This document shows, piece by piece, positions 1,412 through 43,926 of a stretch of DNA of 64,000 bases. Each line of letters begins with the position of its first letter. The stretch's first letter is position 1. Position numbers and translations under genes: made by a program. The DNA is from Escherichia phage dhabil: the sequence record MN850621.1; one strand, given 5' to 3'. The notes beneath the pieces were generated by a model, which saw only the letters and a program-made list of their open reading frames with translations, had not been told where the DNA came from and did no database searches.

Positions 1412-1648
1412 TCATTGTTTAACGATAATGATTTGTGCGTTTGATTTACGTTCAGCGACGATAGCCCAGATTAAAGCCACTACCCAACCAATCATCGTCC
1501 ATCCTAACAGGAGATTAAGGAAGAAGATTCCGACATTGCTACGAGTGCCTCGCAGAAGAGCCAGAATCCATGGTAAAAAGTAACCAATGAACATAATAAC
1601 CAGAGAACCGAATCCTAAAACACCAGCACTAACGATTAAAGCTTCCAT
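1412..1648 (-). CDS. small two-helix membrane protein, positional equivalent of T4 imm
   Basis: 78 aa, two hydrophobic segments; immediately downstream of gene 43 as imm is in T4; early promoter cassette upstream. Confidence 0.45.
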   Translation of the reverse strand: MEALIVSAGVLGFGSLVIMFIGYFLPWILALLRGTRSNVGIFFLNLLLGWTMIGWVVALIWAIVAERKSNAQIIIVKQ

Positions 1649-1649
1649 T

Positions 1650-1708
1650 ATAATTTCCTCATGTAGTTGATAGGAAGGATACTACCACGTTCCATGTGGT
1701 ATGTAAAC
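1650..1708 (-). promoter_or_regulatory. early sigma70-type promoter (degenerate cassette copy)
   Basis: Minus strand GTTTAC, 18 nt, TAGTAT, then SD and ATG of imm-like gene. Confidence 0.5.
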
Positions 1709-12776: not shown

Positions 12777-12799
12777 TGTTACCTCAGATAACTCAAATC

Positions 12800-12840
12800 A
12801 TAGGTCTATTATATCATAGTATTTGAAGACCCGTTTAAAG
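12800..12840 (-). promoter_or_regulatory. promoter-like element upstream of gene 55
   Basis: Minus strand TATAAT followed by cassette core AGACCTAT; -35 unclear. Confidence 0.4.
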
Positions 12841-13610: not shown

Positions 13611-13936
13611 TTAGCAGCCTTAACAATTTTCAGGTCAACGAATTTTTTCTTACGTTGATTCTTCATACGACGGATGGTTTTGTCCGTGATTTCACCCGGG
13701 CACCAAGCTTTAGATTCGACACCAAAGGCGGCCACATCAAACTCGTCGAGAATATATTGAACCAGGATTTCACGAATACCGTTCTTACCAATTTTTTGGT
13801 CTTTAGAGTGCATGATTGGTAACAGTTCAGCAACCCATTGGTCAAGAACCTGAGGAGTTACAAAGCCGGTTTTCATCAGTTCGTTAACTTTATCGAAAGC
13901 GAAAGAGTTCAGTACGTTTTTAATAGCTTGTGACAT
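13607..13936 (-). CDS. hypothetical basic protein
   Basis: 109 aa; N-terminus MSQAI and 5' leader identical to gene at 20456-21301; promoter cassette upstream. Confidence 0.5.
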   Translation of the reverse strand: MSQAIKNVLNSFAFDKVNELMKTGFVTPQVLDQWVAELLPIMHSKDQKIGKNGIREILVQYILDEFDVAAFGVESKAWCPGEITDKTIRRMKNQRKKKFVDLKIVKAAK

Positions 13937-13967
13937 AATAATTTCCTCAGTTTAAAATTTATAATCC

Positions 13968-14005
13968 GTGGGACCATTATACTCTGGTCCCAAGAGTTTG
14001 TAAAC
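13968..14005 (-). promoter_or_regulatory. early promoter within inverted repeat
   Basis: Minus GTTTAC, 18 nt, TATAAT; -10 sits inside palindrome GGGACCA…TGGTCCC. Confidence 0.6.
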
Positions 14006-14895: not shown

Positions 14896-15074
14896 AATTT
14901 AATTTCCTTAGCTATCGAACAAAATACACCACGGTCACAAATCATTTTAATATTAAGGTCAATTATGGTATACCACACGTCCAGGCTAGATATTTCAGTT
15001 ACTAGAACAGCTTTGCCGTTGATTGAATAATACTGGTTGACTTTAATTTCTTTATCTTGGATAGTCATAATGTT

Positions 15075-15126
15075 CTCCTCATGTGTTGATAGGATAGACT
15101 ATAACACGTGAGGAGAGGAAGTAAAC
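15075..15126 (-). promoter_or_regulatory. early promoter cassette
   Basis: GTTTAC -35; cassette core flanked by 11-bp inverted repeat CTCCTCATGTG/CACGTGAGGAG. Confidence 0.55.
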
Positions 15127-18218: not shown

Positions 18219-19225
18219 TTCAACAGCTCCAGAGCTTGTTCAAGACGGTCTAAACGATTGGTAGACTCTTCCCAAAGTTTCTTGGCAGCGGTATATTGGC
18301 CAGTCAGTTTTTTGTTAATAGCAAGGGCATCTTTATACGCTTTTTCTAAGGCAACGATTTCCGGTAACTTGGATTTAGTAATTGGTGTAGGAGCCATGAT
18401 AGGGCTATTCAAGTCATTAATCAAGTCTTCTAATGTAGCAGGCTCTTTATCGGTGTTCACAATTTCCTCACATTTTTCTTGGTAAATTTCAGCATCGGTT
18501 TTTGGAACAGGACATTTGATTTCGCGGACTTTTACTAAGACCTCGTATCCTTTCCAGCCATAGAAATGTTTTACTTCTTGAGTCTCATATTTCTCTACTG
18601 TATCCATAAAAGCTAAGGCTTGTTCGATAATATTCAAGGTGTCGTAAGCAATATCTTGATACTTTACAACTTCCGCGTCATCTTTAGGTTTCCTATTAGG
18701 TGACCAAATAACAGAAATAATAGCTTTTCCTTTATAACTATTTGTTTTAATCATGCAATTAGCCATAGGGTGAATAGTACGGGAATCACCAGAAACTATG
18801 GTTTTAGAGGCCGCTTTGAGAATTAATGCAGAGTTAGCCTTAAATTCGCTAGTCCAACGCTGTGGAAATAGACCACTAGGATCCATACCTTTCATTTTGA
18901 TATAGCTTTTTAAAACATCACCAAACCATTGGTAGCTAACAACGTGGCTGGAACCTGGGTGTTTCTCTTTGCCAAACTCTGAAAGGATATCCTTATTAAC
19001 CAGCCGCGAAAGCAGTCGAGAACCTTTAAATGTATCTATGATATCAGGGATAAACAAACGCCCTGCAATCTTTTCTATTTCAGATTTAAAATACAGCGAC
19101 AAATCTTCGTCAATTTGGTCTACCCATTTATTGATATTAGAAACTATCACCTCATATGGGGTTAATGGAGGGGTATTGTCAGTGATATACGTAGTAAAGG
19201 CATTGATGTATTCAGTACGGGTCAT
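18215..19225 (-). CDS. hypothetical protein (C-terminal coiled coil)
   Basis: 337 aa from ATG at 19225 (MTRTEY); SD GAGGAG; promoter cassette upstream. Confidence 0.55.
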   Translation of the reverse strand: MTRTEYINAFTTYITDNTPPLTPYEVIVSNINKWVDQIDEDLSLYFKSEIEKIAGRLFIPDIIDTFKGSRLLSRLVNKDILSEFGKEKHPGSSHVVSYQWFGDVLKSYIKMKGMDPSGLFPQRWTSEFKANSALILKAASKTIVSGDSRTIHPMANCMIKTNSYKGKAIISVIWSPNRKPKDDAEVVKYQDIAYDTLNIIEQALAFMDTVEKYETQEVKHFYGWKGYEVLVKVREIKCPVPKTDAEIYQEKCEEIVNTDKEPATLEDLINDLNSPIMAPTPITKSKLPEIVALEKAYKDALAINKKLTGQYTAAKKLWEESTNRLDRLEQALELLK

Positions 19226-19231
19226 GATATT

Positions 19232-19283
19232 CTCCTCAGTAGTTGATAAAAGGATTATACTCCATCCGTCCTTGGATGTAAAC
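19232..19283 (-). promoter_or_regulatory. early promoter cassette (degenerate)
   Basis: GTTTAC -35 directly after upstream stop; TTGATA core; SD GAGGAG and ATG at 19225. Confidence 0.5.
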
Positions 19284-19284
19284 A

Positions 19285-20178
19285 TTATTTTAGAGCTAAT
19301 AGTGCCGCGCGAAGCTTGTCACGCTGGTTTTCCATATTCTTGATGCGATTAAGAACGTCTTGAATACTCTTTTTCTCATCTTCAATCTGGCCATTTAAAC
19401 GATGGATTGATTCCTGGATGCTATCTGCATAATAGGTCTCAATAGGTTTCATCGTAGGGTTAGTAACAACCAAAGAATTATCGGGTTTAATTTTCCAATG
19501 ATACGGTTCGGAATTGAATGGACTGGGCACCGCGGTGGTTTTGAATTTGTCATAGGCTGCATACTGGCCTACGCTGTCACATGATACTGCAGAGATACGA
19601 CGTTCCATTTGTGGGTCCTTTTGTTGGGATTGATAAGGGGCATAAGATAAAAGATATTCGCGAGTTAGTTTAACTCTTATATACACTGCATCGGCTTGCC
19701 CTGAACAATCGGCATATTCATCGGTTGTAACTTTATACGATTCTACTGCCTTAATACGGGTCATTGCTTCCCTAAATAAGGTTTCGAATGCTTCACGAAG
19801 GGCCTTATTACCTTTTGAGGTAGGACGGAAACGAACTTGGATACCGTCAGCCAGAATATTAATGACCAGGTTACGAGCCGTAAAATTAATATTCTTGATA
19901 TTAACAGGAACCGTAGAAATACGTCCTGCGGTAGCCAAGAGGTCTTTGATATTAGCTCGTAATGTTGCACCAAACAGGTGGGCTGGGCGACGGCAATAAT
20001 CGTTCAAAGAAGAAATATAAGTTCCTTTACGACCTACGCCATAAGTATAATTACCATTACAAATATGACCAAAGTCAGCTAGCCGATCGATAGCGATACG
20101 ACGAGTCGTGTCATGGTCGTATATAGAGTATTCTTTACGTGTTTTAATATTCATATTAAAGTCCAAATAATTTTTCAT
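19285..20178 (-). CDS. hypothetical protein (C-terminal coiled coil)
   Basis: 297 aa ORF. Confidence 0.55.
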   Translation of the reverse strand: MKNYLDFNMNIKTRKEYSIYDHDTTRRIAIDRLADFGHICNGNYTYGVGRKGTYISSLNDYCRRPAHLFGATLRANIKDLLATAGRISTVPVNIKNINFTARNLVINILADGIQVRFRPTSKGNKALREAFETLFREAMTRIKAVESYKVTTDEYADCSGQADAVYIRVKLTREYLLSYAPYQSQQKDPQMERRISAVSCDSVGQYAAYDKFKTTAVPSPFNSEPYHWKIKPDNSLVVTNPTMKPIETYYADSIQESIHRLNGQIEDEKKSIQDVLNRIKNMENQRDKLRAALLALK

Positions 20179-20371
20179 AGAATTTAGCGATAGGCCAAAA
20201 CACCATCATAATGACCAAAACAACCCAAAGTAGGGGCCATACTAGTGTAATGAATACTGCATCATAGCTTGATTCAATTTCGATTGGATTCCAATCACCT
20301 GATTTATGAATGATAAAGGTCGTCATAAATCCTAGCACAAAGTAAAGGAGAATAAAACCTAAGATTTCCAT
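20156..20371 (-). CDS. hypothetical membrane protein
   Basis: 71 aa, two hydrophobic helices. Confidence 0.45.
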   Translation of the reverse strand: MEILGFILLYFVLGFMTTFIIHKSGDWNPIEIESSYDAVFITLVWPLLWVVLVIMMVFWPIAKFYEKLFGL

Positions 20372-20455
20372 ATTAACCTATAATGTTTGAGAAAATTAGC
20401 CACAGAACACCCGTGGCTACGATTACATATCCAAGAACAGCGAGCCATTCCATAA

Positions 20456-21301
20456 TTAATCCTTAAGAAGATTTAGGATATCGATATATTTCCGGCGTTC
20501 AGCCTTAGCTTTGGCATTCAGACCAGAGAGTCGGAAAATCTCATCATCTTGTTGTTGGATTGTAACATTCAAGCAAGTAAGCAAATTGCTAAAATACTCA
20601 ATCTGGGCTTGATGTTTCTCATTGCTGCGCACTGGTACAGGTTCCATTTTAGGAGCTTGTTCTGAATGCTCTTCAGCCAGGTCTTTAATTTTATAAAGTT
20701 TAATACGTTGGCCTACTCCAGTTTCAGCATCACCAAAACTAAGAACACCGTGTTGTTCTAATTCAGACAGGGCCAAGCGCAGATGGAACTTCCAGTTGTC
20801 ATATTGACAACCACTAAAAGTTGAAATGGTATACTCATTTTCATTTCCAGGGTGGTTAACAATATTAAAGATAATCCAATCACCTGAACCGTTAGTCTTA
20901 AATGTCATTTGTTTATCAAGACCTTTTGCAAGTCGAGCGCCAAGAGCCAGTAGACGTCGTTGGTTGGCATGAAGGTCTTGAACAACTTCACCAAATGACA
21001 TCGCCGGGATTAAACGACCATAAAGGTCGTAGCCTTTGTTATAATTTTTAAGAATAATTTTGGCATTAGCACGAGACAACATACCTGTTTTACGAAGAGT
21101 TTTCATGACCCGGTCTTCTAACGTAAACGAACCTTTAGTCTTGTCAAAGATTTTAATAAAGTCATCTTTAACAGTACAAACATTGAACTTGTCCCACATC
21201 ATATATAGGACCTTTTCAACCACTTCTTTAGAACTAGGAATACGACCAAATTTAACAACTTTTTTAACTTCAGAACGAATTTGATTAATTGCTTGTGACA
21301 T
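20456..21301 (-). CDS. hypothetical protein
   Basis: 281 aa; shares MSQAI N-terminus and leader with gene at 13607-13936. Confidence 0.55.
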   Translation of the reverse strand: MSQAINQIRSEVKKVVKFGRIPSSKEVVEKVLYMMWDKFNVCTVKDDFIKIFDKTKGSFTLEDRVMKTLRKTGMLSRANAKIILKNYNKGYDLYGRLIPAMSFGEVVQDLHANQRRLLALGARLAKGLDKQMTFKTNGSGDWIIFNIVNHPGNENEYTISTFSGCQYDNWKFHLRLALSELEQHGVLSFGDAETGVGQRIKLYKIKDLAEEHSEQAPKMEPVPVRSNEKHQAQIEYFSNLLTCLNVTIQQQDDEIFRLSGLNAKAKAERRKYIDILNLLKD

Positions 21302-21364
21302 AATAATTTCCTCAGTAAGTAATTAAGAACCTAGAACCATTATACCATCCTTGGTATAAAGCGT

Positions 21365-21889
21365 TTATGCGAGAACCGTCTTTAAACGCTCTTCAAATTT
21401 CTGAAGCAGAGCTTGGCGTTCAGCTCGTTGTGATTTGTACTGCTCGATACGACCTGAAGTGAGGGCGTACTGTTCGTTTACTGATTCCCGCATAAATTCA
21501 GGAATCTCTTTACAAGCTTTGATTTCGTCAAACTTATCAATAACCGCTTGTTGTTCGGCAATTAAGTTATCAAAATAAGCGATATCTGATTTAACGTTTG
21601 CCAGGTCAGATTCAGTAGGCATTAAACGTTTATTACGCTCAGCTTGATAAGCTTGGTTGGTTTCACGACTCCAGTGAAGAGTACGTTTTTTGTTGGTGTT
21701 TTTGTAGAGCTCTACAATACCAACTGAATCGATGACAGCAATCCAGTTCCAACGGCTTTTGTAAATCTCTCCTCCAGATACGGTAATCTCATTACCACAA
21801 GCAACGTCATTAAAGAACTTGCTTTGTTTTTCGGATTTGAAATTACCATTGTTAAAATTAATCAGTGAAAAAATATCTTTAGCGTTCAT
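21365..21889 (-). CDS. hypothetical protein
   Basis: 174 aa ORF; promoter cassette upstream. Confidence 0.5.
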   Translation of the reverse strand: MNAKDIFSLINFNNGNFKSEKQSKFFNDVACGNEITVSGGEIYKSRWNWIAVIDSVGIVELYKNTNKKRTLHWSRETNQAYQAERNKRLMPTESDLANVKSDIAYFDNLIAEQQAVIDKFDEIKACKEIPEFMRESVNEQYALTSGRIEQYKSQRAERQALLQKFEERLKTVLA

Positions 21890-21895
21890 GATAAC

Positions 21896-21944
21896 CTCCA
21901 GTAGTTGATAGGTCTATAGTATCATTTCTACTGGAGATGTAAAC
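21896..21944 (-). promoter_or_regulatory. early promoter cassette (canonical copy)
   Basis: Minus GTTTAC, 17 nt, TGATACTAT, AGACCTATCAA; flanked by 9-bp inverted repeat CTCCAGTAG/CTACTGGAG. Confidence 0.65.
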
Positions 21945-21946
21945 AA

Positions 21947-22288
21947 CTAATAAAAACTTTTTTCACCGGCTTGTCCACTAAACCATGCGGATTGGGTGTT
22001 CTCTTTCCGTTGATGTTTAATACGAATAAGGTATTCATTCCTGATGGCACAGAGTTCATCTCTGAAGTCGCCTGCCAACTTAACCTGCTTACGGTCTAGA
22101 TTTATTAAGGCTTGGGTCTTCGCTGCCAAGAGCAGTCTCTTGTAGTCTCCTTCTTCACAATCGGTTTTGTAAACCTTCTCAGCGAATTGGTGTTTAAATT
22201 CATTATCATAGTCTTCAATAGACTGTTTCATGGCATTAGAGTATTTCAACTCTGCTTTTATAAGGTCATAACTAAATTGTTCGAACAT
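21947..22288 (-). CDS. hypothetical protein
   Basis: 113 aa ORF. Confidence 0.45.
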   Translation of the reverse strand: MFEQFSYDLIKAELKYSNAMKQSIEDYDNEFKHQFAEKVYKTDCEEGDYKRLLLAAKTQALINLDRKQVKLAGDFRDELCAIRNEYLIRIKHQRKENTQSAWFSGQAGEKSFY

Positions 22289-22298
22289 AATTTCACCT

Positions 22299-23279
22299 TT
22301 ATTTCAGAAGTGTAACTTCAGCGATTTCGCTCCAGTCATTTTTATCGGTGGCAATGAAGTCCGCCAGGTAAAGAGCCGTGCGTAATGATACGTTACGAAG
22401 ACGAGATACATTGGCCTTCATCCATGCTAGAGCTTGATAAGTCTCAGCATCAGTCAGACCTCGGTTTTGCATCATATCAGTGGACAGGATAACGTCTTCA
22501 ACACGAACCATAATCTCTTCATTCGAGTGAACTCCGAGGTCTAAGTAAACCGAACGAGATACTAAAGCCTGGAGGTGTGGAGCAAGTTTAGTTCCACGCT
22601 CTAATTCACGGTCAATGTCAACGTTGGTGATGAACACGATGGTGCCTTCGTATTCGAATTCTTTATCGATATTTTTATCATCGAGATAAGAACTTGAAGT
22701 GCTCCAGCACACCTTACGTTTCTCACCGGTATCCAATGCGGCTTTAAGAAGGTTCAGGATATCCATGTCAGAGAATACATCAACATCATCAATAAGAAGA
22801 ACACTATTAGGGCCGCGGTTATTCCAAAGCTGCTCGTAAAGACCGATTCCACTAATCTTTCCGTTGATTGATTTATATTCGATAGTTTCATTTTCGTGGG
22901 CATTTTGTAATGCTTTATCTAAAGAGTAGGTTTTACCAATACCTGCGGCACCAGAGATGATAAGGGAACGAATTTTACCATCGATGATTCCGTTAGTCAT
23001 CATGTTCATTACTTTAAAACGTTTGTTGATGCGATGTTTCATTTCTTCAGAGGATTCGGTAACCATTACAGGAGCTTCAGCACCTTCCATTTCAACGTCA
23101 CATTTGAACACCCACACACCACGTTCAACACCATCAATCTGTACGAATACCTTGCCATCACCGAGGTGAGCTTCAGATTCATGAATTTTATTAGGGAACC
23201 AGGTTTTACCTGAACTCATGAACGTACCAGAGATTTCATTACCGCGATAGATACCTTTGTTGATTTTGATAGTTAACAT
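22299..23279 (-). CDS. P-loop NTPase (AAA-like)
   Basis: Walker A SGAAGIGKT and Walker B VLLIDDVD; start set to ATG (MLTIKINKG) after promoter cassette. Confidence 0.55.
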   Translation of the reverse strand: MLTIKINKGIYRGNEISGTFMSSGKTWFPNKIHESEAHLGDGKVFVQIDGVERGVWVFKCDVEMEGAEAPVMVTESSEEMKHRINKRFKVMNMMTNGIIDGKIRSLIISGAAGIGKTYSLDKALQNAHENETIEYKSINGKISGIGLYEQLWNNRGPNSVLLIDDVDVFSDMDILNLLKAALDTGEKRKVCWSTSSSYLDDKNIDKEFEYEGTIVFITNVDIDRELERGTKLAPHLQALVSRSVYLDLGVHSNEEIMVRVEDVILSTDMMQNRGLTDAETYQALAWMKANVSRLRNVSLRTALYLADFIATDKNDWSEIAEVTLLK

Positions 23280-23289
23280 TATATTCTCC

Positions 23290-23345
23290 GTTTCACTCAG
23301 TAGATTTGATAGGTCCATAATAACATGCTCTACGAGAGGGTAAAC
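23290..23345 (-). promoter_or_regulatory. early promoter cassette (variant)
   Basis: TTTACC -35, TTATTAT -10 region, core GGACCTATCAA; precedes ATPase gene. Confidence 0.5.
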
Positions 23346-23364
23346 TCTTTTTTGCACTAAACCC

Positions 23365-23386
23365 AAAAAAGGACCCCGAAGGGTCC
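23365..23386 (-). terminator. intrinsic terminator (TTCG loop)
   Basis: Minus GGACCC-TTCG-GGGTCC followed by TTTTTT, then promoter cassette. Confidence 0.6.
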
Positions 23387-23581
23387 TAAATTGCGCTCCA
23401 ATAATTATGGAAGCGGATATTATTGATAGCCCAGTTAATACACCGTCTTATCTGCTTAGACGTAGGCTTGCATACGTACTTGAAATTGATTCGTCTACCG
23501 GTTTCTCTACAAACTACTTCAAGATACCAACGACAGGTTTTATGAGGTCTTCCATATGACAGGAAAACCTTGATTTCTTCT

Positions 23582-24592
23582 TTAGCGGTAATAAGAGTTG
23601 TGGTTGTCAAGATACACCTCTTCGACGAACTTGTCCCAGAACTTCATGTCCACCTTCTCAGGTATACCGTTCTTATGAGCTTGTACAGCCAGGACTTCAA
23701 CTTCATCAACAATGTTTTCTAGCAGCCCTTGGACCACTTTAAAAGGCATATCACCTGCTTTTATTGCTTTAATAATAGAAGCATTTTTAAGTGGATAAAC
23801 CAAATCGCCTGTTTGATAGATTTCCTTCAACTGATATCCAGCACGATAAGCGTGGCTCAGAGCTTTCCAGTCAATACCTTCATTGGCTTCGGCCTTACGA
23901 GCACGTTCACCATATTCGGCATCAAGTTTATTCAGAGATTGCTTGAGCTCGATTAATGACAAAGTAGTTTGGTATTTACGACCGAGGACGGTATAGAACG
24001 TTTGAGGACCTGTTTTCTCGTGGTTATGAAATACCCATTCACAGAACTCATTTTCAGGGAGCCGGTGCTTAATATCTTCTACCTTAGTACGTCGTTGCTT
24101 AGTAGAACCATCTTCTTGATAATCAACCCACTGTTCAGGAATCTGGTTAACAATTGCCAGTACACCACGTAAAGCAGCCAGTCGAGAACCCTTAACACCA
24201 TATTTAGAAGCTTGCTTACGGACGTACCCTAAATAGGCTTTCATGTTGGTTGTATAGAAACGCGAACGGTTATCTTGGATAAATTTCCATACATCAGGTA
24301 AATCAGATTTAACCACCATTTCAGGCGGAGTGTGGAGCATATCCAGAGCAACGGTTTCGCCTTCAGCAGCCAGTTTAAAGAAATATTTCAGACTGTAAAG
24401 CTCATGGTCAACATCATCTTTAGTGTTTTTGGAAGCAGTGTTATTCGTGTTCAGGTTGGTATGGTTCATTGCCGTACCTAACAGAATATCACGCGGATGT
24501 GGAACAAAGATTTCTTTAAAATCGACATCAGATTCCGGAGTACTTGTTCCATAAAGGTGGCTACCGAAGTAGCCTTTCATAACTGTTCTCAT
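23582..24592 (-). CDS. nucleotidyltransferase-fold protein (Pol-beta superfamily)
   Basis: N-terminal GSHLYGTSTPESDVD fits the G[SG]-x(9-13)-D-x-[DE] motif; 336 aa. Confidence 0.5.
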   Translation of the reverse strand: MRTVMKGYFGSHLYGTSTPESDVDFKEIFVPHPRDILLGTAMNHTNLNTNNTASKNTKDDVDHELYSLKYFFKLAAEGETVALDMLHTPPEMVVKSDLPDVWKFIQDNRSRFYTTNMKAYLGYVRKQASKYGVKGSRLAALRGVLAIVNQIPEQWVDYQEDGSTKQRRTKVEDIKHRLPENEFCEWVFHNHEKTGPQTFYTVLGRKYQTTLSLIELKQSLNKLDAEYGERARKAEANEGIDWKALSHAYRAGYQLKEIYQTGDLVYPLKNASIIKAIKAGDMPFKVVQGLLENIVDEVEVLAVQAHKNGIPEKVDMKFWDKFVEEVYLDNHNSYYR

Positions 24593-25041
24593 TTCTTAGC
24601 CTCAAAATGGATTACCGGACACATCTTAGATTTACGAGCTTTAATATATTGAATGAAAACATTTTCTTTAATTTCCTTTCCTTCACGTTTAGCTTTAATG
24701 CGTTCCCATTCTTTTTCTTCTTTACGTAAATCGTACCGGGCCCATAAATTCATTAGACCATACACCAAACCAAAAGCTACCGCTAGAATAAGGGCTATTA
24801 TAATCAGTCCTAAAATAAAACCTAAACTTAAACCAACAGGAGTACTCAATACAAAGAACTGCTCCAATATACCGGCACCTGCAACAGTTAAGCCGAAAAT
24901 AGTACTACCTGCAAGCACAGAACACATAAAGCACACCCAAACCATTTTCCAGAAGTATGCGCATAATGATCGCGGACGCGAATAACTGGCATAAAAGCGG
25001 TCATGTAATTTAACATGCCAAGAGTTTTCATTGATAATCAT
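24589..25041 (-). CDS. hypothetical membrane protein
   Basis: 150 aa; two to three hydrophobic helices, Gly-rich. Confidence 0.45.
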   Translation of the reverse strand: MIINENSWHVKLHDRFYASYSRPRSLCAYFWKMVWVCFMCSVLAGSTIFGLTVAGAGILEQFFVLSTPVGLSLGFILGLIIIALILAVAFGLVYGLMNLWARYDLRKEEKEWERIKAKREGKEIKENVFIQYIKARKSKMCPVIHFEAKK

Positions 25042-25050
25042 AATATTTCC

Positions 25051-25611
25051 TTAAGAGTTCATAGTTGGGATAACAGAGTTCAGATAAGATACTAAAACTT
25101 TTAGCTCGTCCTTCGTAAATACAACTTCATTTTCACCGTCGTGTCTTTGGACCAAGGATAGCAAATCACGGCCCTGGTGTTGATACACGGTTAGTTCGGT
25201 ATCATAATCCATTTCTTCTTCATCACCTTCAAATGTTTCACTAGAACGAATTACGGCATCTTGACCAGGGACTTTCCATTCAACTTCCGGCTTGCATTCT
25301 TCCTGGAACAGTTTAAAAATACATTTAAAGAAATTACTAGAATCGCTAATGCTCAGACATTCTCCGTCTGTTTCCAAATTAAACCCTTTGTCATGGTTAT
25401 AAATCTGGGCCCATAAACCATCATTAATATCAAATACACCTCTAAATCTGCCATTAAGATATTCGTGTTTGTCCAAAACCTTTAAATCATAAAGCGGCTT
25501 GATATCTTGGATAGTCAGTACGATTTTATCGTCTTCTTGTGAAAGCACAATTGCATTATCAACTACTTCAGCAGTCAGGTCACCAAACAGCCCAGATGTT
25601 TCAATAATCAT
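25051..25611 (-). CDS. hypothetical acidic protein
   Basis: 186 aa ORF. Confidence 0.45.
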   Translation of the reverse strand: MIIETSGLFGDLTAEVVDNAIVLSQEDDKIVLTIQDIKPLYDLKVLDKHEYLNGRFRGVFDINDGLWAQIYNHDKGFNLETDGECLSISDSSNFFKCIFKLFQEECKPEVEWKVPGQDAVIRSSETFEGDEEEMDYDTELTVYQHQGRDLLSLVQRHDGENEVVFTKDELKVLVSYLNSVIPTMNS

Positions 25612-25621
25612 TTTCCGTTCC

Positions 25622-25804
25622 TCATTTCACATTTTGTTTAATAAAATTTAGCAATTCTTTAAGGGCTTTATCTTCTTCTTTAGAAAGCCTAGTACAATCA
25701 TCAACCGAGTAATGGTGACAAAATGCTGTTTCGAATCTGGCAACTGTACCAGCATAGGCCTCGATAAGCTCTTCAAGCTTTAAGTGCTTTTCTTTGGTTT
25801 TCAT
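25622..25804 (-). CDS. hypothetical protein
   Basis: 60 aa ORF. Confidence 0.35.
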   Translation of the reverse strand: MKTKEKHLKLEELIEAYAGTVARFETAFCHHYSVDDCTRLSKEEDKALKELLNFIKQNVK

Positions 25805-25807
25805 AAA

Positions 25808-26092
25808 TCACCGGTTATGTTTTAAAATACTATAAAGCTCTTCGACTTGGCTTGCATCCAGATAAATGACCTCGTCATCTTGTTCCAGGACAATTCCGCC
25901 TTTAATAAGATTCCACTCTACCACTTCAACAGTCATATCATCACCTGAACCTGCTAATGTTTCAGGTTTCAAAACAATAACACCATCTTCAGAATTACCA
26001 CTCGGGTCGTATAACATTACAGTTTCCTCGCTAACCGTGAAAAGAATAAACCTATTAAAACTGGACCAATAAGCATTGTAAGCCAAGCCCAA
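25808..26092 (-). CDS. hypothetical protein
   Basis: 94 aa ORF; start uncertain. Confidence 0.4.
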   Translation of the reverse strand: MGLAYNAYWSSFNRFILFTVSEETVMLYDPSGNSEDGVIVLKPETLAGSGDDMTVEVVEWNLIKGGIVLEQDDEVIYLDASQVEELYSILKHNR

Positions 26093-26561: not shown

Positions 26562-26792
26562 TTAAATTTTTTCGAATAATGCCAAAGCTTTTTCGATAGC
26601 TACAGATTTAGTACCAATAACCATTTTAGGCTGTGATTGGAACTTAGTAGCTTCATAAACTTCTAAACCAGTTACTTTACCGTTTTGTTCGATAATAGCA
26701 AAGGTAGCGTTTTCAAAATCTTCAGCTTTAACTTTAAGTGCTTTAGAAGCTTTAGCGATATCGATAACTTTCAGGTTGGTGATGGTTTTCAT
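26562..26792 (-). CDS. hypothetical protein
   Basis: 76 aa; cassette-type leader (GGAGAATAAAATG) and promoter upstream. Confidence 0.5.
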   Translation of the reverse strand: MKTITNLKVIDIAKASKALKVKAEDFENATFAIIEQNGKVTGLEVYEATKFQSQPKMVIGTKSVAIEKALALFEKI

Positions 26793-26800
26793 TTTATTCT

Positions 26801-26849
26801 CCTCATTAGTTGATAGGTCTATAGTATCACGTTCCTAGAGGATGTAAAC
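26801..26849 (-). promoter_or_regulatory. early promoter cassette
   Basis: GTTTAC, 17 nt, TGATACTAT, AGACCTATCAA, then GGAGAATAAAATG. Confidence 0.65.
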
Positions 26850-26857
26850 ACTAAAAC

Positions 26858-26887
26858 GAAAAAAGGTCCCACCGAAGTGAGACCTTT
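26858..26887 (-). terminator. intrinsic terminator (TTCG loop)
   Basis: Minus GGTCTCAC-TTCG-GTGGGACC followed by TTTTT, then promoter cassette. Confidence 0.6.
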
Positions 26888-30259: not shown

Positions 30260-30718
30260 TTAAAGATAGATTACTTTCGTGCTGGTTTTACCTTCTAAAC
30301 GTTTAGAATTAACAAATGCCATACGACATTTTAATGAATATCCTTTATCAGGATGTTTACGATCTACGGTCATACCCAACCATAAGGTTTTATCGGTAAT
30401 CTCGAGACGCAGTGGACGATACACTTTACCTGGGACAATTTCAGATTCTATGTCAGGAAGAGGCTCCTGGATTAAAAATTCATGGATTTCTTTAACATGA
30501 TTGTGGAGCTTCTTGAACAAAGAGAAAACATATTTTTCGTCAATTTCACGTTGGATAGCACGGTCCAACAAGTGATTAGAGTACTTAATAAAGAAAGCTG
30601 GGACACCGCTCTTAATGGCGGCTTTTTTGATGGACGCGTTAAGTTCACGAAATTCGGTTTCGAACTGACGACGTAATTTGTTGCGGCGGATGAATACTTC
30701 TGAATTAATTTCTGACAT
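30260..30718 (-). CDS. regB: endoribonuclease RegB
   Basis: 152 aa; EVFIRRNKLRRQFETEFR…HLLDRAIQREIDE closely resembles T4 RegB. Confidence 0.92.
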   Translation of the reverse strand: MSEINSEVFIRRNKLRRQFETEFRELNASIKKAAIKSGVPAFFIKYSNHLLDRAIQREIDEKYVFSLFKKLHNHVKEIHEFLIQEPLPDIESEIVPGKVYRPLRLEITDKTLWLGMTVDRKHPDKGYSLKCRMAFVNSKRLEGKTSTKVIYL

Positions 30719-30726
30719 TTTGTAAT

Positions 30727-30775
30727 CTCCTGTAGTTGATAGGTCTATAGTACCACGTCTACAGGAGATGTAAAC
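30727..30775 (-). promoter_or_regulatory. early promoter cassette upstream of regB
   Basis: GTTTAC -35; core flanked by perfect inverted repeat CTCCTGTAG/CTACAGGAG. Confidence 0.65.
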
Positions 30776-32225: not shown

Positions 32226-32642
32226 TTATGCGTAAATCGCCTTACCATAATGTTTGTACCAGGTAGGACGTTGTGCAATTTTTTCATCCAAACGGGCTTG
32301 TGAAATAGCGATAGAAGCTTCGTGAGGAACATAATCACCACGGAATTCCTGAGGAATATCACTAATGTCCTGGACTGTAGTATCCTTGATATTAAAGCCA
32401 CGTTTTAAACATTCAGCTATAAGCTCAATTTGACGCTTACGTAAAAATTCAAGCTTATCATAAAAGAATGTAACATGGCCTGTACCAAGGATAAAAGTAG
32501 GGCTGATTTTAAAATCACGAACACGTTTACCGTTAGCAACATGCTTACGAACTGCACCGAAAACACGTGGTAATTCACGGTATTCAGCCATAAGGTGTTG
32601 GTCGGCCAATTCAGATACTAAGGTAAGGTTGATACGAGTCAT
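32226..32642 (-). CDS. denV: endonuclease V (pyrimidine-dimer DNA glycosylase) DenV
   Basis: 138 aa; [34 protein letters not shown]… is near-identical to T4 DenV as I recall it. Confidence 0.96.
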
Positions 32643-32648
32643 TTTAAT

Positions 32649-32697
32649 CTCCTGTAGTTGATAGGTCTATAGTATCATGCCTACCGGAGATGTAAAC
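32649..32697 (-). promoter_or_regulatory. early promoter cassette upstream of denV
   Basis: GTTTAC -35; TGATACTATAGACCTATCAA core; imperfect inverted repeat. Confidence 0.6.
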
Positions 32698-33191: not shown

Positions 33192-33194
33192 AAT

Positions 33195-33214
33195 ACCTCC
33201 TGAGTATAGGAGGT
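33195..33214 (-). promoter_or_regulatory. RBS-sequestering hairpin in gene e leader
   Basis: Minus strand ACCTCCT-loop-AGGAGGT pairs the SD of e with an upstream complement; same arrangement as described for T4 gene e. Confidence 0.55.
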
Positions 33215-33221
33215 ATTTATA
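33214..33221 (-). promoter_or_regulatory. late promoter (TATAAATA) for gene e
   Basis: Minus-strand TATAAATA immediately 5' of the RBS hairpin of e. Confidence 0.6.
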
Positions 33222-33671
33222 TCAAAAGAGCGAATCTAAAACCTTAAACATCGACGGGCCCATGACATATTCCCATTGCGGACGTTTAATCAAGGCGAAG
33301 GCATCAAATTCAGGAATCGTACGACCATCAGGGAACGTGTGGTAAGCTGTACATTTGCAATTCTTGAACTGCTCGTGTTCGACAGGCACAGTATATAAGA
33401 ACAGGTGTAGATTCTTATTGCTAGAATATTTGAACTCACCTAGGTCTTTCAGGAACGCAGGATCGTATGCAGTGAATCCAATCTCTTCTTCAGTTTCACG
33501 CATTGCTGCTTGAATAGGCTCTTCACCCGGTTCGACATGACCTTTAGGGATGTCCCATTTATGACGCATATTCTCTGGATTACGAGAACCTGTTACACGA
33601 CCCATAACCAATTCTTTATCGGCGGTCATAAACAAAATACCGGCGGATAGTTCTTTAACTTTTTTACTCAT
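33222..33671 (-). CDS. nudE: Nudix hydrolase
   Basis: Nudix box GHVEPGEEPIQAAMRETEEEIG; directly next to e as in T4. Confidence 0.85.
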   Translation of the reverse strand: MSKKVKELSAGILFMTADKELVMGRVTGSRNPENMRHKWDIPKGHVEPGEEPIQAAMRETEEEIGFTAYDPAFLKDLGEFKYSSNKNLHLFLYTVPVEHEQFKNCKCTAYHTFPDGRTIPEFDAFALIKRPQWEYVMGPSMFKVLDSLF

Positions 33672-35180: not shown

Positions 35181-35411
35181 TCAGAAGCAAGTATTAACTT
35201 TACCAGTTGTGCTTACACATGTGTTACCGAGCTGAACACCTAAAGTACCATTAGGATTCATATGGAGATTATTACCGATCTTAACCGATGTACCATCTTT
35301 ACTGACAACGATTGAGGATTCAACTTGTGTTTCGTCTCCAACATCAACAATAAAAGGAACTGCAGCTAAAGCAACCAAGCTCAGGGCTAAAACACTCATG
35401 ATGGCTTTCAT
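35181..35411 (-). CDS. small secreted protein
   Basis: ATG (MKAIMS…) with signal peptide; GGAGAATAAA SD; promoter cassette upstream. Confidence 0.5.
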   Translation of the reverse strand: MKAIMSVLALSLVALAAVPFIVDVGDETQVESSIVVSKDGTSVKIGNNLHMNPNGTLGVQLGNTCVSTTGKVNTCF

Positions 35412-35417
35412 TTTATT

Positions 35418-35480
35418 CTCCAATTCACTCATTTGTTTTGATAGGTCTATAATAACATATCTTACGAGAATGTATATTAC
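35418..35480 (-). promoter_or_regulatory. early promoter cassette (variant)
   Basis: Core TTGATAGGTCTATAATAACAT with leader GGAGAATAAAATG; -35 degenerate. Confidence 0.45.
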
Positions 35481-35689
35481 TTTTTGTTGAAAAAGTACAT
35501 TTTACCTTTAGGGGATAAGGATACACGAAGTGCATTACCGATACCAACCGAACATTTAACCAGGTCAGCAGATTTCAATTCACCAAATGCTTGACGAAGG
35601 TCACCGTCACGAGTGTTAACCATCAGACATTTAGCACCAGCTGCACGAACTTCGTTTAACATGTTGATTGCTTGGTTAGAAAGTTTCAT
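35477..35689 (-). CDS. hypothetical protein
   Basis: ATG (MKLSNQ…) with cassette leader; 70 aa. Confidence 0.5.
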   Translation of the reverse strand: MKLSNQAINMLNEVRAAGAKCLMVNTRDGDLRQAFGELKSADLVKCSVGIGNALRVSLSPKGKMYFFNKK

Positions 35690-35696
35690 TTTATTC

Positions 35697-35757
35697 TCCA
35701 TTTCACTCTGTTGTTTTGATAGGTCTATAGTATCACACCTATAGACCTTGTACACTG
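35697..35757 (-). promoter_or_regulatory. early promoter cassette (variant)
   Basis: Core with internal inverted repeat GGTCTATAG…CTATAGACC; -35 region GTGTAC. Confidence 0.5.
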
Positions 35758-39966: not shown

Positions 39967-40560
39967 TTACTTAAGTGAATTAATGTAGTCTTCGATATCG
40001 GCTGAAGTCGTATCCATTCCAACTTGTGGGCCTTTAAACGTTTCTACACGCAGCAGGGTATCTTCAATATCAATCTTAGTCAATGCAGCGATTTCAACCA
40101 CATCATCGGCAGTAGCAATACCAAGGGCAGCCATATTACGAGTTTCACGAATGTACTCAAGCTTAACCGCTAGTTCCTGGCGAGAGTCATCAAGTTCCTT
40201 GACCTTCAGTTTAATTTCATTACGCATTTCGATATAATCGTCTGCTTTCTTACGAAGTTGATTAGCTGTACGACGATAAAGGAGGCCAAGTTTAGCATGC
40301 ACCTGGACATCGGCGCCTTCTTTAATCAGTTTACGAATTTCACGCTCTTTTGAAGCGGCGAGTTGGTCTTTTTCATTCGCTAACTCGCGAATACGTTTTT
40401 CTTCATTCACAGACTTAACATGAGCAGTCTGGAGTTCAGTAATTTTATCAATCAGGGTAGAAGCAGCTTTAGTATACTGGTCTTCGATTGACAGGTTCTG
40501 AGTCATTGCGGTACCCAGTTTAGAACGGATGAATTCAACGATTTTCTTTAAAGTGTTCAT
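39967..40560 (-). CDS. coiled-coil protein, possibly PspA/IM30-like
   Basis: ATG (MNTLKKIV…) with SD GAAGGAAA; long amphipathic helices; weak resemblance to PspA N-terminus. Confidence 0.4.
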
Positions 40561-40589
40561 AGTATTTCCTTCAGTCGGTTGATATTTTG

Positions 40590-40633
40590 TAATCCATGAG
40601 GACATTATACCCTGTCCTCTGAGGGTTGTAAAC
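40590..40633 (-). promoter_or_regulatory. early sigma70-type promoter
   Basis: Minus GTTTAC, 18 nt, TATAAT; -10 inside palindrome GGACA…TGTCC. Confidence 0.6.
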
Positions 40634-40636
40634 ATT

Positions 40637-41035
40637 TTATTTCATTTTTGCTAGGCAAATTTCATTGGCTTCCCATTGAGCTTGCTTAATAATAGCTTTG
40701 GATACAGGAACCCTTTGACCATAAGTTTTTGACGTTGAGAGAACAATATATTTGTTTGCCTCATTATGCCAACCTAGTGATTTTTCACCATGAGTACCTT
40801 TAACCACAGCTGACACCTCAACAGAGCAACCACCATCAGAAATCTTGGTTTCTACAATCCATTCATTTCTCTCGACAGCTTCAATTTCCGATCTCCTTTT
40901 TTCTTCATACATGGCGGCCCAATCAGTTTTTGCCAAGCTGAAAGTAAGAGCTTTCTCTAATTCTTTGGCAGCTTTTTGTTGTTCAGGCGTTAATGAATTA
41001 TACAACTCTTGCATTTCTTTATCTTCGATATTCAT
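40637..41035 (-). CDS. hypothetical protein
   Basis: 132 aa ORF. Confidence 0.45.
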
Positions 41036-41092
41036 TATGCTCTCCTCAAATTACGGGCTCATAATATCTCAATCATGAGCCCGTGTAAACAA

Positions 41093-41356
41093 TTATTTCA
41101 TATTATTGAAATAATCTTCCGCATCAAAATCGTTATCGTGATAAACTTTGGTAGACAATTTGACGTACCCTTCGGCAGCAAACATATTAACCACAACCTT
41201 TACGGTATACCACTGTCCATCGTCATTACCCATTACTGCGTAGGTTTCAAATATGGGATGGTCATCACCTATAACCTTAATATCGTTAACAGTAGCACCA
41301 AATTCTTCAGGAACGCATTTCATAAAGAAATTAAACAATTCACCATAATTATCCAT
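41093..41356 (-). CDS. hypothetical acidic protein
   Basis: ATG (MDNYGELF) after AAGGAGAGTAAA; promoter cassette upstream. Confidence 0.5.
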   Translation of the reverse strand: MDNYGELFNFFMKCVPEEFGATVNDIKVIGDDHPIFETYAVMGNDDGQWYTVKVVVNMFAAEGYVKLSTKVYHDNDFDAEDYFNNMK

Positions 41357-41370
41357 TTTACTCTCCTTCA

Positions 41371-41420
41371 CTCTGTTGTTTTGATAGGTCTATAGTATCA
41401 CGTTTAAAGGAGGTGTAAAC
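41371..41420 (-). promoter_or_regulatory. early promoter cassette
   Basis: GTTTAC -35; TGATACTATAGACCTATCAA core; follows a TTCG terminator. Confidence 0.6.
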
Positions 41421-41454: not shown

Positions 41455-41477
41455 AAAAGGAGACCGAAGTCTCCTTT
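41455..41477 (-). terminator. intrinsic terminator (TTCG loop) after IPIII-like gene
   Basis: Minus GGAGAC-TTCG-GTCTCC followed by TTTT. Confidence 0.6.
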
Positions 41478-42338: not shown

Positions 42339-42414
42339 TGGTCGAGACAGTAGGGATCGAACCTACGACCCAGGACTTAGAAGGTCCTTGCTCTTCCTTC
42401 TGAGCTATGCCTCG
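42339..42414 (-). tRNA. tRNA-Arg (anticodon TCT)
   Basis: Hand-folded cloverleaf: acceptor CGAGGCA/TGTCTCG, D-arm GCTC/GAGC, anticodon stem AGGAC/GTCCT with loop CTTCTAA, T-arm GTAGG-TTCGATC-CCTAC, CCA encoded. Confidence 0.8.
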
Positions 42415-42418
42415 TATT

Positions 42419-42493
42419 TGGCGGACATGCATGGATTCGAACCATGGACCAATTGATTAACAGTCAACTGCTCTACCACTGAGCTACACATCC
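42419..42493 (-). tRNA. tRNA-Asn (anticodon GTT)
   Basis: Hand-folded: D-arm GCTC-AGTGGTA-GAGC, anticodon loop CTGTTAA, T-arm CATGG-TTCGAAT-CCATG, CCA encoded; acceptor stem has two G-T pairs. Confidence 0.7.
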
Positions 42494-42497
42494 AAAT

Positions 42498-42571
42498 TGG
42501 TGGCCCTGGGTGGAATCGAACCACCATCCAGCGATTATGAGTCGCTCGCTTGACCGTCCAGCTACAGGGCC
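42498..42571 (-). tRNA. tRNA with CAT anticodon (Met, or Ile if lysidine-modified)
   Basis: Hand-folded: acceptor GGCCCTG/CAGGGCC, anticodon stem AGCGA/TCGCT with loop CTCATAA, T-arm GGTGG-TTCGATT-CCACC, CCA encoded. Confidence 0.75.
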
Positions 42572-43323: not shown

Positions 43324-43509
43324 TTACTCACCTTTAGAGATTTTATCCATAACGAAAGAGATTGAACCAATTAAGAATGCCACTACTAAAGAGATTATAT
43401 TCTCGGAAGTTGTAAGCAAATCCAACATGAATCCTGCAAACATACTAAAGCCAAAAGCAGTAACGGCGGCCAGTGCAGTAACATTTCTAATTAATTCACA
43501 ACGTTTCAT
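43324..43509 (-). CDS. small membrane protein
   Basis: ATG (MKRCEL…) with cassette leader; one or two hydrophobic helices. Confidence 0.45.
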   Translation of the reverse strand: MKRCELIRNVTALAAVTAFGFSMFAGFMLDLLTTSENIISLVVAFLIGSISFVMDKISKGE

Positions 43510-43519
43510 TTTATTCTCC

Positions 43520-43575
43520 AATCACTCATTTGTTTTGATAGGGCTATAGTATCATCACTAGAGCCCGTTGTAAAT
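43520..43575 (-). promoter_or_regulatory. early promoter cassette (variant)
   Basis: ATTTAC -35; core TTGATAGGGCTATAGTATCA with inverted repeat GGGCTATAG…CTAGAGCCC. Confidence 0.5.
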
Positions 43576-43579
43576 AACT

Positions 43580-43858
43580 TTAAAGTGCTTTTTTCAAAAT
43601 ATCAAAGTGCTTGGTGGCGATGTAAACGGTTTTCATTACAGAAGATTCTTGAGCCGGGGAAATAACAATGCTCCCACCGTCTTTTTTAGCATGGTAACCG
43701 TCGCCCAGATAAACAGTACCTTTAAGTTCATCACCATTAAGACCGATAACCGGTTTACCTTCACGGCCTTTGTTTAGGGCTATAACTTCACTCATAACAC
43801 TGGCTTCAGTGATAGGAGCCACTTTTTGAGATTTACTAAATTCTTGATAAGTTTTCAT
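43580..43858 (-). CDS. capsid internal protein (IPI/IPII-like)
   Basis: N-terminus MKTYQEFSKS… is the T4 internal-protein targeting sequence; 92 aa. Confidence 0.55.
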   Translation of the reverse strand: MKTYQEFSKSQKVAPITEASVMSEVIALNKGREGKPVIGLNGDELKGTVYLGDGYHAKKDGGSIVISPAQESSVMKTVYIATKHFDILKKAL

Positions 43859-43880
43859 TTTGATTTCCATTTGGTTAGTT

Positions 43881-43926
43881 TGTTTTTGATAGGCCTATAG
43901 TATCATCACTAAAGCCCTTTGTAAAA
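43881..43926 (-). promoter_or_regulatory. early promoter cassette (variant) upstream of internal-protein gene
   Basis: TTTTAC -35; core TTGATAGGCCTATAGTATCA. Confidence 0.5.

Follow-up and report, generated by a model that had tools for sequence, protein, structure and literature searches.

Early-promoter cassettes of a JS98-like coliphage and their spacer-encoded hairpins: a probable insulation of early genes from upstream transcription

The early region of Escherichia phage dhabil (sequence record MN850621.1) raises the question of why a promoter should carry an inverted repeat that differs from copy to copy and yet stays complementary. A block at positions 21896–21944 of the 64,000-nucleotide (nt) stretch that we analyzed (the window) had been described, in an initial annotation, as one copy of a recurrent early-promoter cassette. 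We find 16 such cassettes on the minus strand, each of the form GTTTAC, 17–18 nt, TAnnnT, Shine-Dalgarno sequence (SD), ATG. They are probably T4-type early promoters of Dhakavirus, of the promoter early stem-loop (PeSL) class, and in many of them a hairpin with one arm in the promoter spacer probably insulates each gene from upstream transcription. PeSLs are composites of a promoter and a stem-loop in T4-type phages (Arbiol 2010, PMC2839356; Comeau 2014, PMC4122927), a class also characterized by promoter and terminator/attenuator activity and by mini-circle formation.

By megablast, positions 20000–26000 of the window matched Escherichia phage dhaeg (98.6%) and CLB_P2 (97.7%) best, followed by the JS98/JS10/IME281 group (~90–93%). 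Because these are the best matches, we assign the window by sequence to Dhakavirus, that is, to a JS98-like T4-type coliphage. The initial annotation had likened the cassettes to the PeSLs of RB49-type phages; their architecture and consensus do fit the published accounts (PMC2839356, PMC4122927), but the phage is of the JS98 type. According to the annotation of JS98, dhaeg, CLB_P2 and JS10, the first 46 kb (1–46 kb) form a long minus-strand early region with the gene order imm/gene 43, 55, 49, nrdC, tk, vs, regB, denV, e, tRNAs, internal-protein genes and gene 1, and the late genes come next. The cassettes are confined to 1.6–44 kb of the minus strand and interspersed with small early open reading frames (ORFs), which is the early hyperplastic location of PeSLs, and scans of the window found none in the late-gene part (46–64 kb).

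We identified the cassettes by scanning for GTTTAC-like and TAnnnT hexamers 16–18 nt apart followed by an SD and ATG, and we refer to each by its -35 position, the higher of its coordinates in Table 1. In all 16 the hexamers are spaced 17–18 nt apart and the 3' end consists of the SD and start codon for the gene that follows, both as in PeSLs; ten are TG-extended, and the sequence upstream is mostly A-rich. The 20-mer TGATACTATAGACCTATCAA (≤3 mismatches) occurs ten times, always on the minus strand, which is sense for the early genes, compared to 0.00 occurrences expected in shuffled sequence. The full core is found in 10 of the 16 cassettes, (C)TATCAAC alone in three (1708, 15126, 19283) and neither in three (14005, 40633, 41090), while the pattern GTTTAC-N-TACTATAGNCCTATCAA has five matches in the window. 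A generic sigma70 scan was not enriched over shuffles (57 vs 59.8, and 61 vs 51.3) and therefore cannot alone validate the promoters; significance attaches only to the extended family motif. The flagged copy (21944–21887, minus strand) reads GTTTAC AT CTCCAGTAG AAATGA TACTAT AGACCTATCAA CTACTGGAG GTTATC ATG, with GTTTAC at 21944–21939, the 5' arm CTCCAGTAG at 21936–21928, TACTAT at 21921–21916, AGACCTATCAA at 21915–21905, the 3' arm CTACTGGAG at 21904–21896 and ATG at 21889.

These results bear out most of what had first been said of the family. Fifteen of the 16 positions originally listed hold; the copy near 12800 has a core-like block that lacks GTTTAC, and the cassette at 41090 had been missed. 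The distance of 17–18 nt given between GTTTAC and the conserved block is true between the hexamers, but the literal pattern GTTTAC-N16-19-TGATACTAT gives no matches. TTCG-loop terminators and a shared leader are both present, although "many" overstated them: such terminators lie upstream of three cassettes (23345, 26849, 41420), and the exact leader GGAGAATAAAATGAAA follows four of the 16. The block near 12800 (12797–12840, minus strand; TATAATAGACCTATGA) lies upstream of gene 55 (ATG at 12776), with a GGTCT/AGACC mini-repeat and, 14 nt 5' of its TACTAT, a MotA-box-like TGCTTTA. The block may represent the cassette's counterpart among middle promoters, comparable to the PmSLs of phage nt-1.

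Are the cassettes promoters? T4 early promoters, "uber" promoters with UP, -35, TGn and -10 elements, have a consensus that extends past the hexamers (Hinton 2010, PMC2988021), and a preference for C at positions -3 to -1 is reported for T4-like early promoters (Nolan et al. 2006, PMC1524935); AGNCCT followed by ATCAA thus fits as a discriminator plus start region. A T4-type early promoter is supported as the predicted function by the hexamers and TG extension, by the A-rich sequence upstream and by the place directly before the SD and ATG, and the original description of a sigma70 -35/extended -10 promoter with a core running past the -10 stands for the family, with the full core in the ten copies given above. 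We also note that, in Dhakavirus and Karamvirus, at least 38 different genes are preceded by a near-invariant AGNCCTATCAA block (-6 to +5; e.g. 21905–21915), which forms part of a stem in some copies and of a loop in others. Its invariance is not accounted for by pairing and could reflect promoter function, homogenization by recombination or a factor binding site.

To evaluate the inverted repeats, we folded each segment from the spacer to the ATG, as in an RNA arriving from upstream, and obtained z scores from shuffles. Ten of the 16 cassettes gave z ≤ -2 and seven gave z ≤ -3, and it is these that possess the stem-loop expected of a PeSL. The 55 nt upstream of cassette start codons had a mean z of -2.8, compared to 0.03 at 92 gene starts without a cassette (p=6e-5). 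Strong folds at gene starts were otherwise confined to gene 49 (start at 16529, z -4.0) and an alternative start codon of cassette 35755. The gene 49 fold and the gene e hairpin (33192–33240) act as positive controls within the window, ribosome-site sequestration having been published for both. Rfam covariance models run over positions 1–47000 brought only three tRNAs to the gathering score and yielded no family for the cassettes.

The hairpins fall into two types. In type I, spacer ATCTCCnnTAG pairs with leader CTAnnGGAGAT, which places the SD within a stem of 11 bp and leaves the -10 and start block in its loop; this arrangement is found at 15126, 21944, 30775 (regB) and 32697 (denV) (ΔG about -14 to -21 kcal/mol, z -3.2 to -6.3) and, in weaker form, at 41420. 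The SD of these five copies is paired in silico, as in T4-type ribosome-site sequestration. In type II (14005, 35755, 41090, 43575, 43926), the spacer pairs with the -10/start block, as in the arms listed for 35755, 43575 and 41090 in Table 1. The remaining cassettes, type III, have no significant structure (1708, 19283, 23345, 26849, 35477, 40633). The inverted repeats had at first been called perfect, and those at 21944 (CTCCAGTAG/CTACTGGAG) and 30775 (CTCCTGTAG/CTACAGGAG) are; the third, at 15126, is CTCCTCACGTG/CACATGAGGAG, in which 10 of 11 positions pair and whose letters had been transposed, and the denV repeat has one mismatch.

We examined variation in the arms using an exact scan of IMG/VR for TACTATAGNCCTATCAA, which gave 108 loci (~20 T4-like genomes), including the JS98 group and the Enterobacter phages CC31 and PG7, in both of which the exact core is multi-copy. 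These loci yielded 131 distinct flanks and 98 parsed cassettes upstream of 38 different genes. In T4, denV is preceded by an identical cassette (GTTTACATCTCCTGTAGGTATGATACTATAGACCTATCAACTACAGGAG) and trna.4 and e.8 by close copies; the stored T4 record (NC_000866.4) also has an N, at locus position ~13345, that falls in the hairpin 5' arm of the promoter upstream of e.7 (ATAGGCTNATG). When spacers were swapped among 37 gene groups, the mean minimum free energy (MFE) was -8.0 kcal/mol, compared to -10.2 for native spacers and -4.65 for shuffled ones, and none of 2000 permutations reached the native value. Core base N covaries with the spacer: A (AGACC) occurs with GGTCT in 13 of 13 cases and C (AGCCC) with GGGCT in 24 of 25. 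The type II 5' arm meets the same core from three different registers. Over 12 distinct copies, the type I helix is 96% paired and displays A-U/U-A and G-C/U-A double changes as well as a sense-strand U-A/U-G change; only 1 of 500 shuffles reached its score, and slid registers fell to 31–54% paired. Finally, the promoter at 41090 and the matching T4 promoter differ by two compensatory pair changes around an identical loop (arms ATAGGCTn/GAGCCTAT in T4 and ACGGGCTC/GAGCCCGT in the window). These sequence comparisons support genuine compensatory variation in the inverted repeats.

The strongest test of selected pairing is that at regB, for which we collected the upstream sequences of T4 and ten further phages of other genera by tblastn. 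The arms of the spacer-SD stem differ among Dhakavirus (ATCTCCTGTAG), T4 (CCTCTTGACTG), Mosigvirus (TCTCCTCTAGTTG), Gelderlandvirus (TTCTCCTCTTTATG) and Winklervirus (TCCTCATTTG). SonariX and Jiaodavirus have TCTCC/GGAGA stacked with GGGCTAT/ATAGCCC or GGGCCAT/ATGGCCC, Gaprivervirus pairs its -10 region with the SD and AUG, and one Klebsiella phage has type II pairing only. The Tegunavirus upstream fold was not significant (z -1.4), and the Krischvirus phage has no promoter at that place. In 8 of the 10 regB promoters z was -3.9 to -6.7. The SD lies wholly within the stem in 7 of 10 genera and is partly paired in two more, and the differences between arms reach beyond the anti-SD. Swapping spacers among the ten genera changed the mean MFE from -16.9 to -9.2 kcal/mol, and none of 20000 permutations reached the native value. 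Alignment of the regB promoters of seven genera with MAFFT and RNAalifold predicted zero pairs because the arms were misaligned, and this approach was replaced by folding each sequence with shuffles and by the spacer-swap permutation. The claim that copies differ by compensatory changes is upheld by all three comparisons, those of swapped spacers, of the type I helix and of regB.

We propose the following mechanism. Host sigma70 RNA polymerase would recognize the A-rich upstream region, GTTTAC (-35), TGn and TAcTAT (-10), with AGNCCT as a C-rich discriminator and ATCAA as the initial transcribed sequence, the predicted start being the A of ATCAA. Each promoter and the SD and start codon of its target gene would together form one composite cassette. 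The spacer would hold a 5' arm in ~10 of the 16 cassettes, and the 3' arm would be either the leader with its GGAG/GAGG SD (type I) or the -10/start block (type II). Because transcription is predicted to begin within the loop, which also holds the -10, the spacer-borne 5' arm would be upstream of the start; the cassette's own transcripts would therefore miss the 5' strand, as in the sequestered T4 genes, and would be translatable. Read-through transcripts from the gene above would carry both arms and fold. The type I fold would mask the ribosome site and should also shield its GGAG from RegB, which is tightly controlled, cuts its own GGAG SD and is blocked by secondary structure (PMC3014915). 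Where a cassette has an intrinsic terminator, insulating the gene from upstream transcription would be the task of that terminator. We rejected a protein operator, given that the arm sequences vary freely among copies while their complementarity persists.

The relationship between hairpins and terminators bears directly on this proposal. We compared 121 distinct cassettes: the mean embedded structure was -6.0 kcal/mol in the 23 that have an intrinsic terminator ≤75 nt upstream and -13.7 in the others (p=7e-9), and the same was true at the level of gene groups (-4.9 vs -11.9 kcal/mol; p=0.0015). In the window, the three terminator-preceded cassettes are those with weak or no hairpin, and in the strongly structured cassettes the stop codon of the upstream gene lies 1–15 nt from the -35. 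Embedded hairpins and upstream intrinsic terminators thus tend not to share one cassette across related phages. A function in read-through transcription predicts this inverse relation; a function at the DNA level would not.

However, the same relation fits equally well with a rule of one terminator per junction, and we considered that the embedded stem-loops might be terminators, attenuators or 3'-end stabilizers for upstream transcripts, with any masking of translation incidental. A terminator or attenuator role was proposed for PeSL stem-loops by Arbiol et al. 2010 (PMC2839356), who found that one RB49/phi1 PeSL stem-loop cut downstream lacZ as much as rrnB T1. Moreover, type II hairpins leave the SD free, and for these an attenuator role stays live. 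In contrast, intrinsic termination is disfavored by the absence of U tracts: no type I or type II hairpin has one, and ATCAAAAC, GTTATC or ATTACAAA come next instead. The terminator scan gave only the separate TTCG-loop terminators, and the conserved partner in type I is specifically the SD in at least seven genera, whereas terminators need no SD. We regard this explanation as unlikely overall.

Alternatively, the inverted repeats might act in DNA, either as hairpins or cruciforms that modulate promoter opening or as sites of recombination or endonuclease VII cleavage that promote shuffling. The arms are mostly perfect Watson-Crick repeats and both strands fold equally, the stems enclose the -10 element, the cassettes are enriched for breakpoints (see below), and one crossover was mapped to the loop of a stem-loop (Arbiol 2010, PMC2839356). 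Nevertheless, such a function predicts neither the inverse relation with upstream transcription terminators nor the frequent use of the SD as the 3' arm, and the sense-strand U-G pairs found in the nrdC.8 group and in T4 regB are C-A mismatches on the opposite strand; we consider a DNA-level role quite improbable. That the pairing has no function, with repeats and covariation inherited from a few founders among recent duplicates spread by recombination, would suit the near identity of the window regB and denV cassettes over ~60 nt, the restriction of double changes to 2 helix positions in the 12 type I copies and the persistence of hybrids with broken pairing, but is scarcely credible given regB orthologues with differing yet complementary arms across genera (native beats swapped in 20000/20000 permutations), the three registers from which type II arms reach one core and the two compensatory pair changes between T4 and the window in a single promoter.

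Several points weigh against insulation by hairpins. About 6 of the 16 cassettes have no significant structure, and three of these are reported with a separate upstream terminator instead; the SD is left untouched by type II hairpins, which also lack a U tract. Folding is equally strong on the sense and antisense strands (-10.2 vs -9.8; p=0.52), such that wobble pairs give no means of telling RNA from DNA. Some genomes have imperfect pairing: the window at denV, and dhaeg, JS98 and JS10 at nrdC.8. Membership of the IMG/VR set was decided by the core motif, and the paralogous cassettes share ancestry, such that the compensatory changes represent few independent events. We infer promoter activity, the start site and read-through from sequence, and likewise the RNA-level effect on translation and the mechanism of recombination.

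The nrdC.8 cassette is of interest in its own right. In JS98 and JS10, its 5' arm (CTCCATTAG) matches that of an unrelated cassette upstream of an MKNLL gene, while its 3' arm remains CTACTGGAG; dhaeg has one substitution in the 3' arm. The pairing is partly broken in all three, which could reflect conversion between dispersed cassettes or simple drift. We set the JS98/JS10 hybrid aside as evidence of conversion since two substitutions suffice to produce it.

If insulation by spacer hairpins is correct, it could exemplify a general rule for early genes of T-even-type phages, which we put forward tentatively and think rather less likely than its failure. Under this rule, a spacer arm complementary to the SD or to the start block would leave only promoter-proximal immediate-early transcripts translatable and RegB-sensitive and would keep read-through silent; hairpin and terminator would be interchangeable, and compensatory evolution would have kept the regB arrangement in at least seven genera. 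AGNCCTATCAA might also be a target for early-promoter shut-off.

As a side effect, the 40–100 bp of near-identity between cassettes would make them targets for homologous recombination, through which the genes between them could be deleted, inserted or swapped. We chained BLAST alignments of window positions 1–47 kb to 36 related loci and obtained 97 distinct indel or replacement boundaries. Two loci (L072 and L096) were excluded from the breakpoint statistics: in these, ~100-nt segments of the window are replaced by 0–1 nt, and the "deletions" are so regular in size that a storage artefact is more likely than real loss. Nineteen of the 97 boundaries lie ≤15 nt from a cassette, a zone that makes up 3.2% of the sequence (p=3e-10), which is ~6-fold over a uniform distribution. 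Considering only the 60 boundaries at gene junctions, 19 are at the 16 of 102 junctions that have a cassette (p=0.0015), ~2-fold over other junctions. On the other hand, 80% of the boundaries are away from cassettes, BLAST alignment ends are drawn to the conserved cassettes, and the boundaries are not independent. A 207-nt gene insertion beside the regB cassette in dhaeg is clearly not cassette-mediated. The link to gene shuffling drawn in the initial annotation thus survives comparison with related genomes in part: the evidence supports a contribution of the cassettes, not a role as the main driver.

Two loci illustrate this contribution. At denV, JS10 has a promoter (AAAAGCAGTTTACATCTCCTAGAATTG...) driving ipIII and an ORF (1103 nt), followed by the denV cassette, whereas the window, dhaeg and CLB_P2 have a single hybrid cassette that starts like the first JS10 promoter and is otherwise like the second. 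This is as would be expected of a crossover in GTTTAC(A/T)TCTCC and appears to be the cleanest promoter-promoter deletion. At 35181–35476 (minus strand), a promoter and a 76-aa ORF are inserted exactly between a stop codon and the SD of the next gene; the ORF has a signal-peptide-like N-terminus (MKAIMSVLALSLVALAAV), and the unit is absent from JS10 and six IMG/VR loci.

Table 1. Early-promoter cassettes of the window and the gene e control (ΔG in kcal/mol)
Feature	Coordinates	Strand	Description
Cassette before imm-like gene	1646..1708	-	has CCTATCAAC; weak structure, ΔG -10.8, z -1.15
Cassette before 55.2-like gene	13934..14005	-	type II GGGACC/GGTCCC around TATAAT; ΔG -16.7, z -2.9; no extended core
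Cassette before 55.6-like gene	15066..15126	-	type I: spacer CTCCTCACGTG with leader CACATGAGGAG including SD; ΔG -21.1, z -6.3
Cassette before nrdC.4	19223..19283	-	has TTATCAAC; structure not significant, z +0.1
Flagged cassette before nrdC.8	21887..21944	-	full core; type I stem ATCTCCAGTAG/CTACTGGAGGT over SD; ΔG -17.8, z -3.8
Cassette before nrdC.10	23277..23345	-	TTCG-loop terminator upstream (23370-23387); no embedded hairpin, z +0.75
Cassette before 76-aa ORF	26790..26849	-	TTCG-loop terminator upstream (26862-26887); 5-bp CCTC/GAGG pairing only, z -0.8; leader GGAGAATAAAATGAAA
Cassette before regB	30716..30775	-	type I stem ATCTCCTGTAG/CTACAGGAGAT; ΔG -17.8, z -4.6
Cassette before denV	32640..32697	-	type I stem, one G.A mismatch; ΔG -13.7, z -3.2; hybrid after ipIII-module deletion (module in JS10)
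Cassette with truncated -35 (ATATAC)	35409..35477	-	heads inserted promoter and ORF module 35181-35476; shared leader; weak structure
Type II cassette	35688..35755	-	stem AGGTCTATAG/CTATAGACCT encloses -10; ΔG -15.4, z -3.7; shared leader
Cassette before e.6	40558..40633	-	inverted repeat GAGGAC/GTCCTC around TATAAT, z -0.9; no extended core
Cassette absent from initial annotation	41033..41090	-	13-bp type II stem ACGGGCTCATGAT.../...ATGAGCCCGT; ΔG -21.4, z -6.0
Cassette before e.8	41354..41420	-	TTCG-loop terminator upstream (41456-41477); spacer CCTCCTT with AAGGAGAG; ΔG -10.0, z -2.0
Cassette before trna.4-like gene (MKRCEL)	43507..43575	-	type II GGGCTCTAG/CTATAGCCC; core N=C covaries with spacer; z -2.3; shared leader
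Cassette before internal-protein gene (MKTYQEF...)	43856..43926	-	imperfect type II stem, z -2.0
Lysozyme gene e control (not of the family)	33192..33240	-	late promoter TATAAATA and ACCTCC...GGAGGT hairpin over SD, classical T4 arrangement

Two further features of the region deserve mention. Cassettes of the MKTYQ group (43856–43926 in the window, and IMG/VR loci) precede internal-protein genes with the capsid-targeting N-terminus MKTYQEF; a conserved promoter, leader and N-terminus have been suggested as flanks that permit swapping of internal-protein genes (Repoila 1994, as cited in PMC4122927). At 42342–42571 (minus strand) are three tRNA genes (Arg, Asn and Met by the dhaeg annotation), whose flanks are an insertion hotspot in CLB_P2 and JS10 in which cassettes are not involved.

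The cassettes are useful for annotation and for understanding differences in early-region gene content among therapy-relevant coliphages, and in this they are not new in kind. Two aspects go beyond the accessible literature: that promoter spacers hold the masking strand for a downstream ribosome site, conserved with covariation at regB across genera, and that hairpins and upstream terminators tend to exclude each other per cassette. If confirmed, these would provide a simple rule for the individual timing of densely packed, co-oriented early genes, would explain part of the tight control of RegB, and would offer a design principle for insulated expression cassettes.

How do the cassettes compare with known systems? 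Morons of lambdoid phages are promoter-gene-terminator units inserted between genes. The 35181–35476 unit resembles them as a promoter and small ORF placed between a stop codon and the next SD and absent from relatives, but it has no terminator of its own, and its promoter comes from the resident early-promoter family rather than from a foreign source.

A closer functional parallel is found in T4 genes e, soc, 49 and I-TevI, whose ribosome site is sequestered in long transcripts (McPheeters 1986; reviewed in Uzan and Miller 2010, PMC3014915). Here too the SD or AUG lies in a helix whose 5' strand is upstream of the start of a nearby promoter, such that only transcripts from that promoter are translatable, and the e and gene 49 hairpins themselves occur in the window. 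In contrast, the internal promoter in that class is late (gp55; TATAAATA) and expression is delayed, whereas the cassettes have an early sigma70-type promoter whose own spacer supplies the 5' strand, and expression would be expected to be restricted to the immediate-early period. By analogy, the cassettes would work like this class without being members of it as described.

Like T4 early promoters, the cassettes combine a GTTTAC -35, a TG-extended -10, an A-rich upstream region, a preference for C at -3 to -1 and a consensus beyond the hexamers. They differ in their spacer-encoded hairpin arms, which are not mentioned in PMC2988021 or PMC1524935, and in AGNCCTATCAA, which varies less in Dhakavirus and Karamvirus than across the part of T4 that we examined.

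The comparison with PeSLs is the closest. Published PeSL stem-loops occupy the upstream A/T region, cover the -35 or the -10, lie between these boxes or immediately precede the start, and in no case is the 3' arm in the SD; a type I stem in the window instead runs from spacer to SD and loops out the -10 and start site. The stems of RB49 consist of a G tract and a C tract and the window stems do not; in addition, ~6 of the 16 window copies lack a stem-loop, and only 20% of breakpoints are at cassettes. A spacer-to-SD hairpin is not among the five PeSL positions (PMC2839356) or the sequestration cases (PMC3014915), with an earlier mention in the JS98/T4 genome literature being possible; it is apparently an undescribed twist on a known element. 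In other respects the likeness is extensive: an intergenic A/T-rich region with a sigma70-type early promoter, a stem-loop, an SD and a start codon, present in many copies in early plastic regions and at indel or replacement junctions between close relatives. PeSLs have already been extended to T4/PST, with the consensus TTTACW-N17-TAYWAT, and PeSL-like sequences have been mentioned for JS98 (PMC4122927); this consensus fits the window copies, including TACTAT. Judged by sequence, the cassettes have every feature by which PeSLs are defined at that level and are the Dhakavirus members of a family that includes the early promoters of T4.

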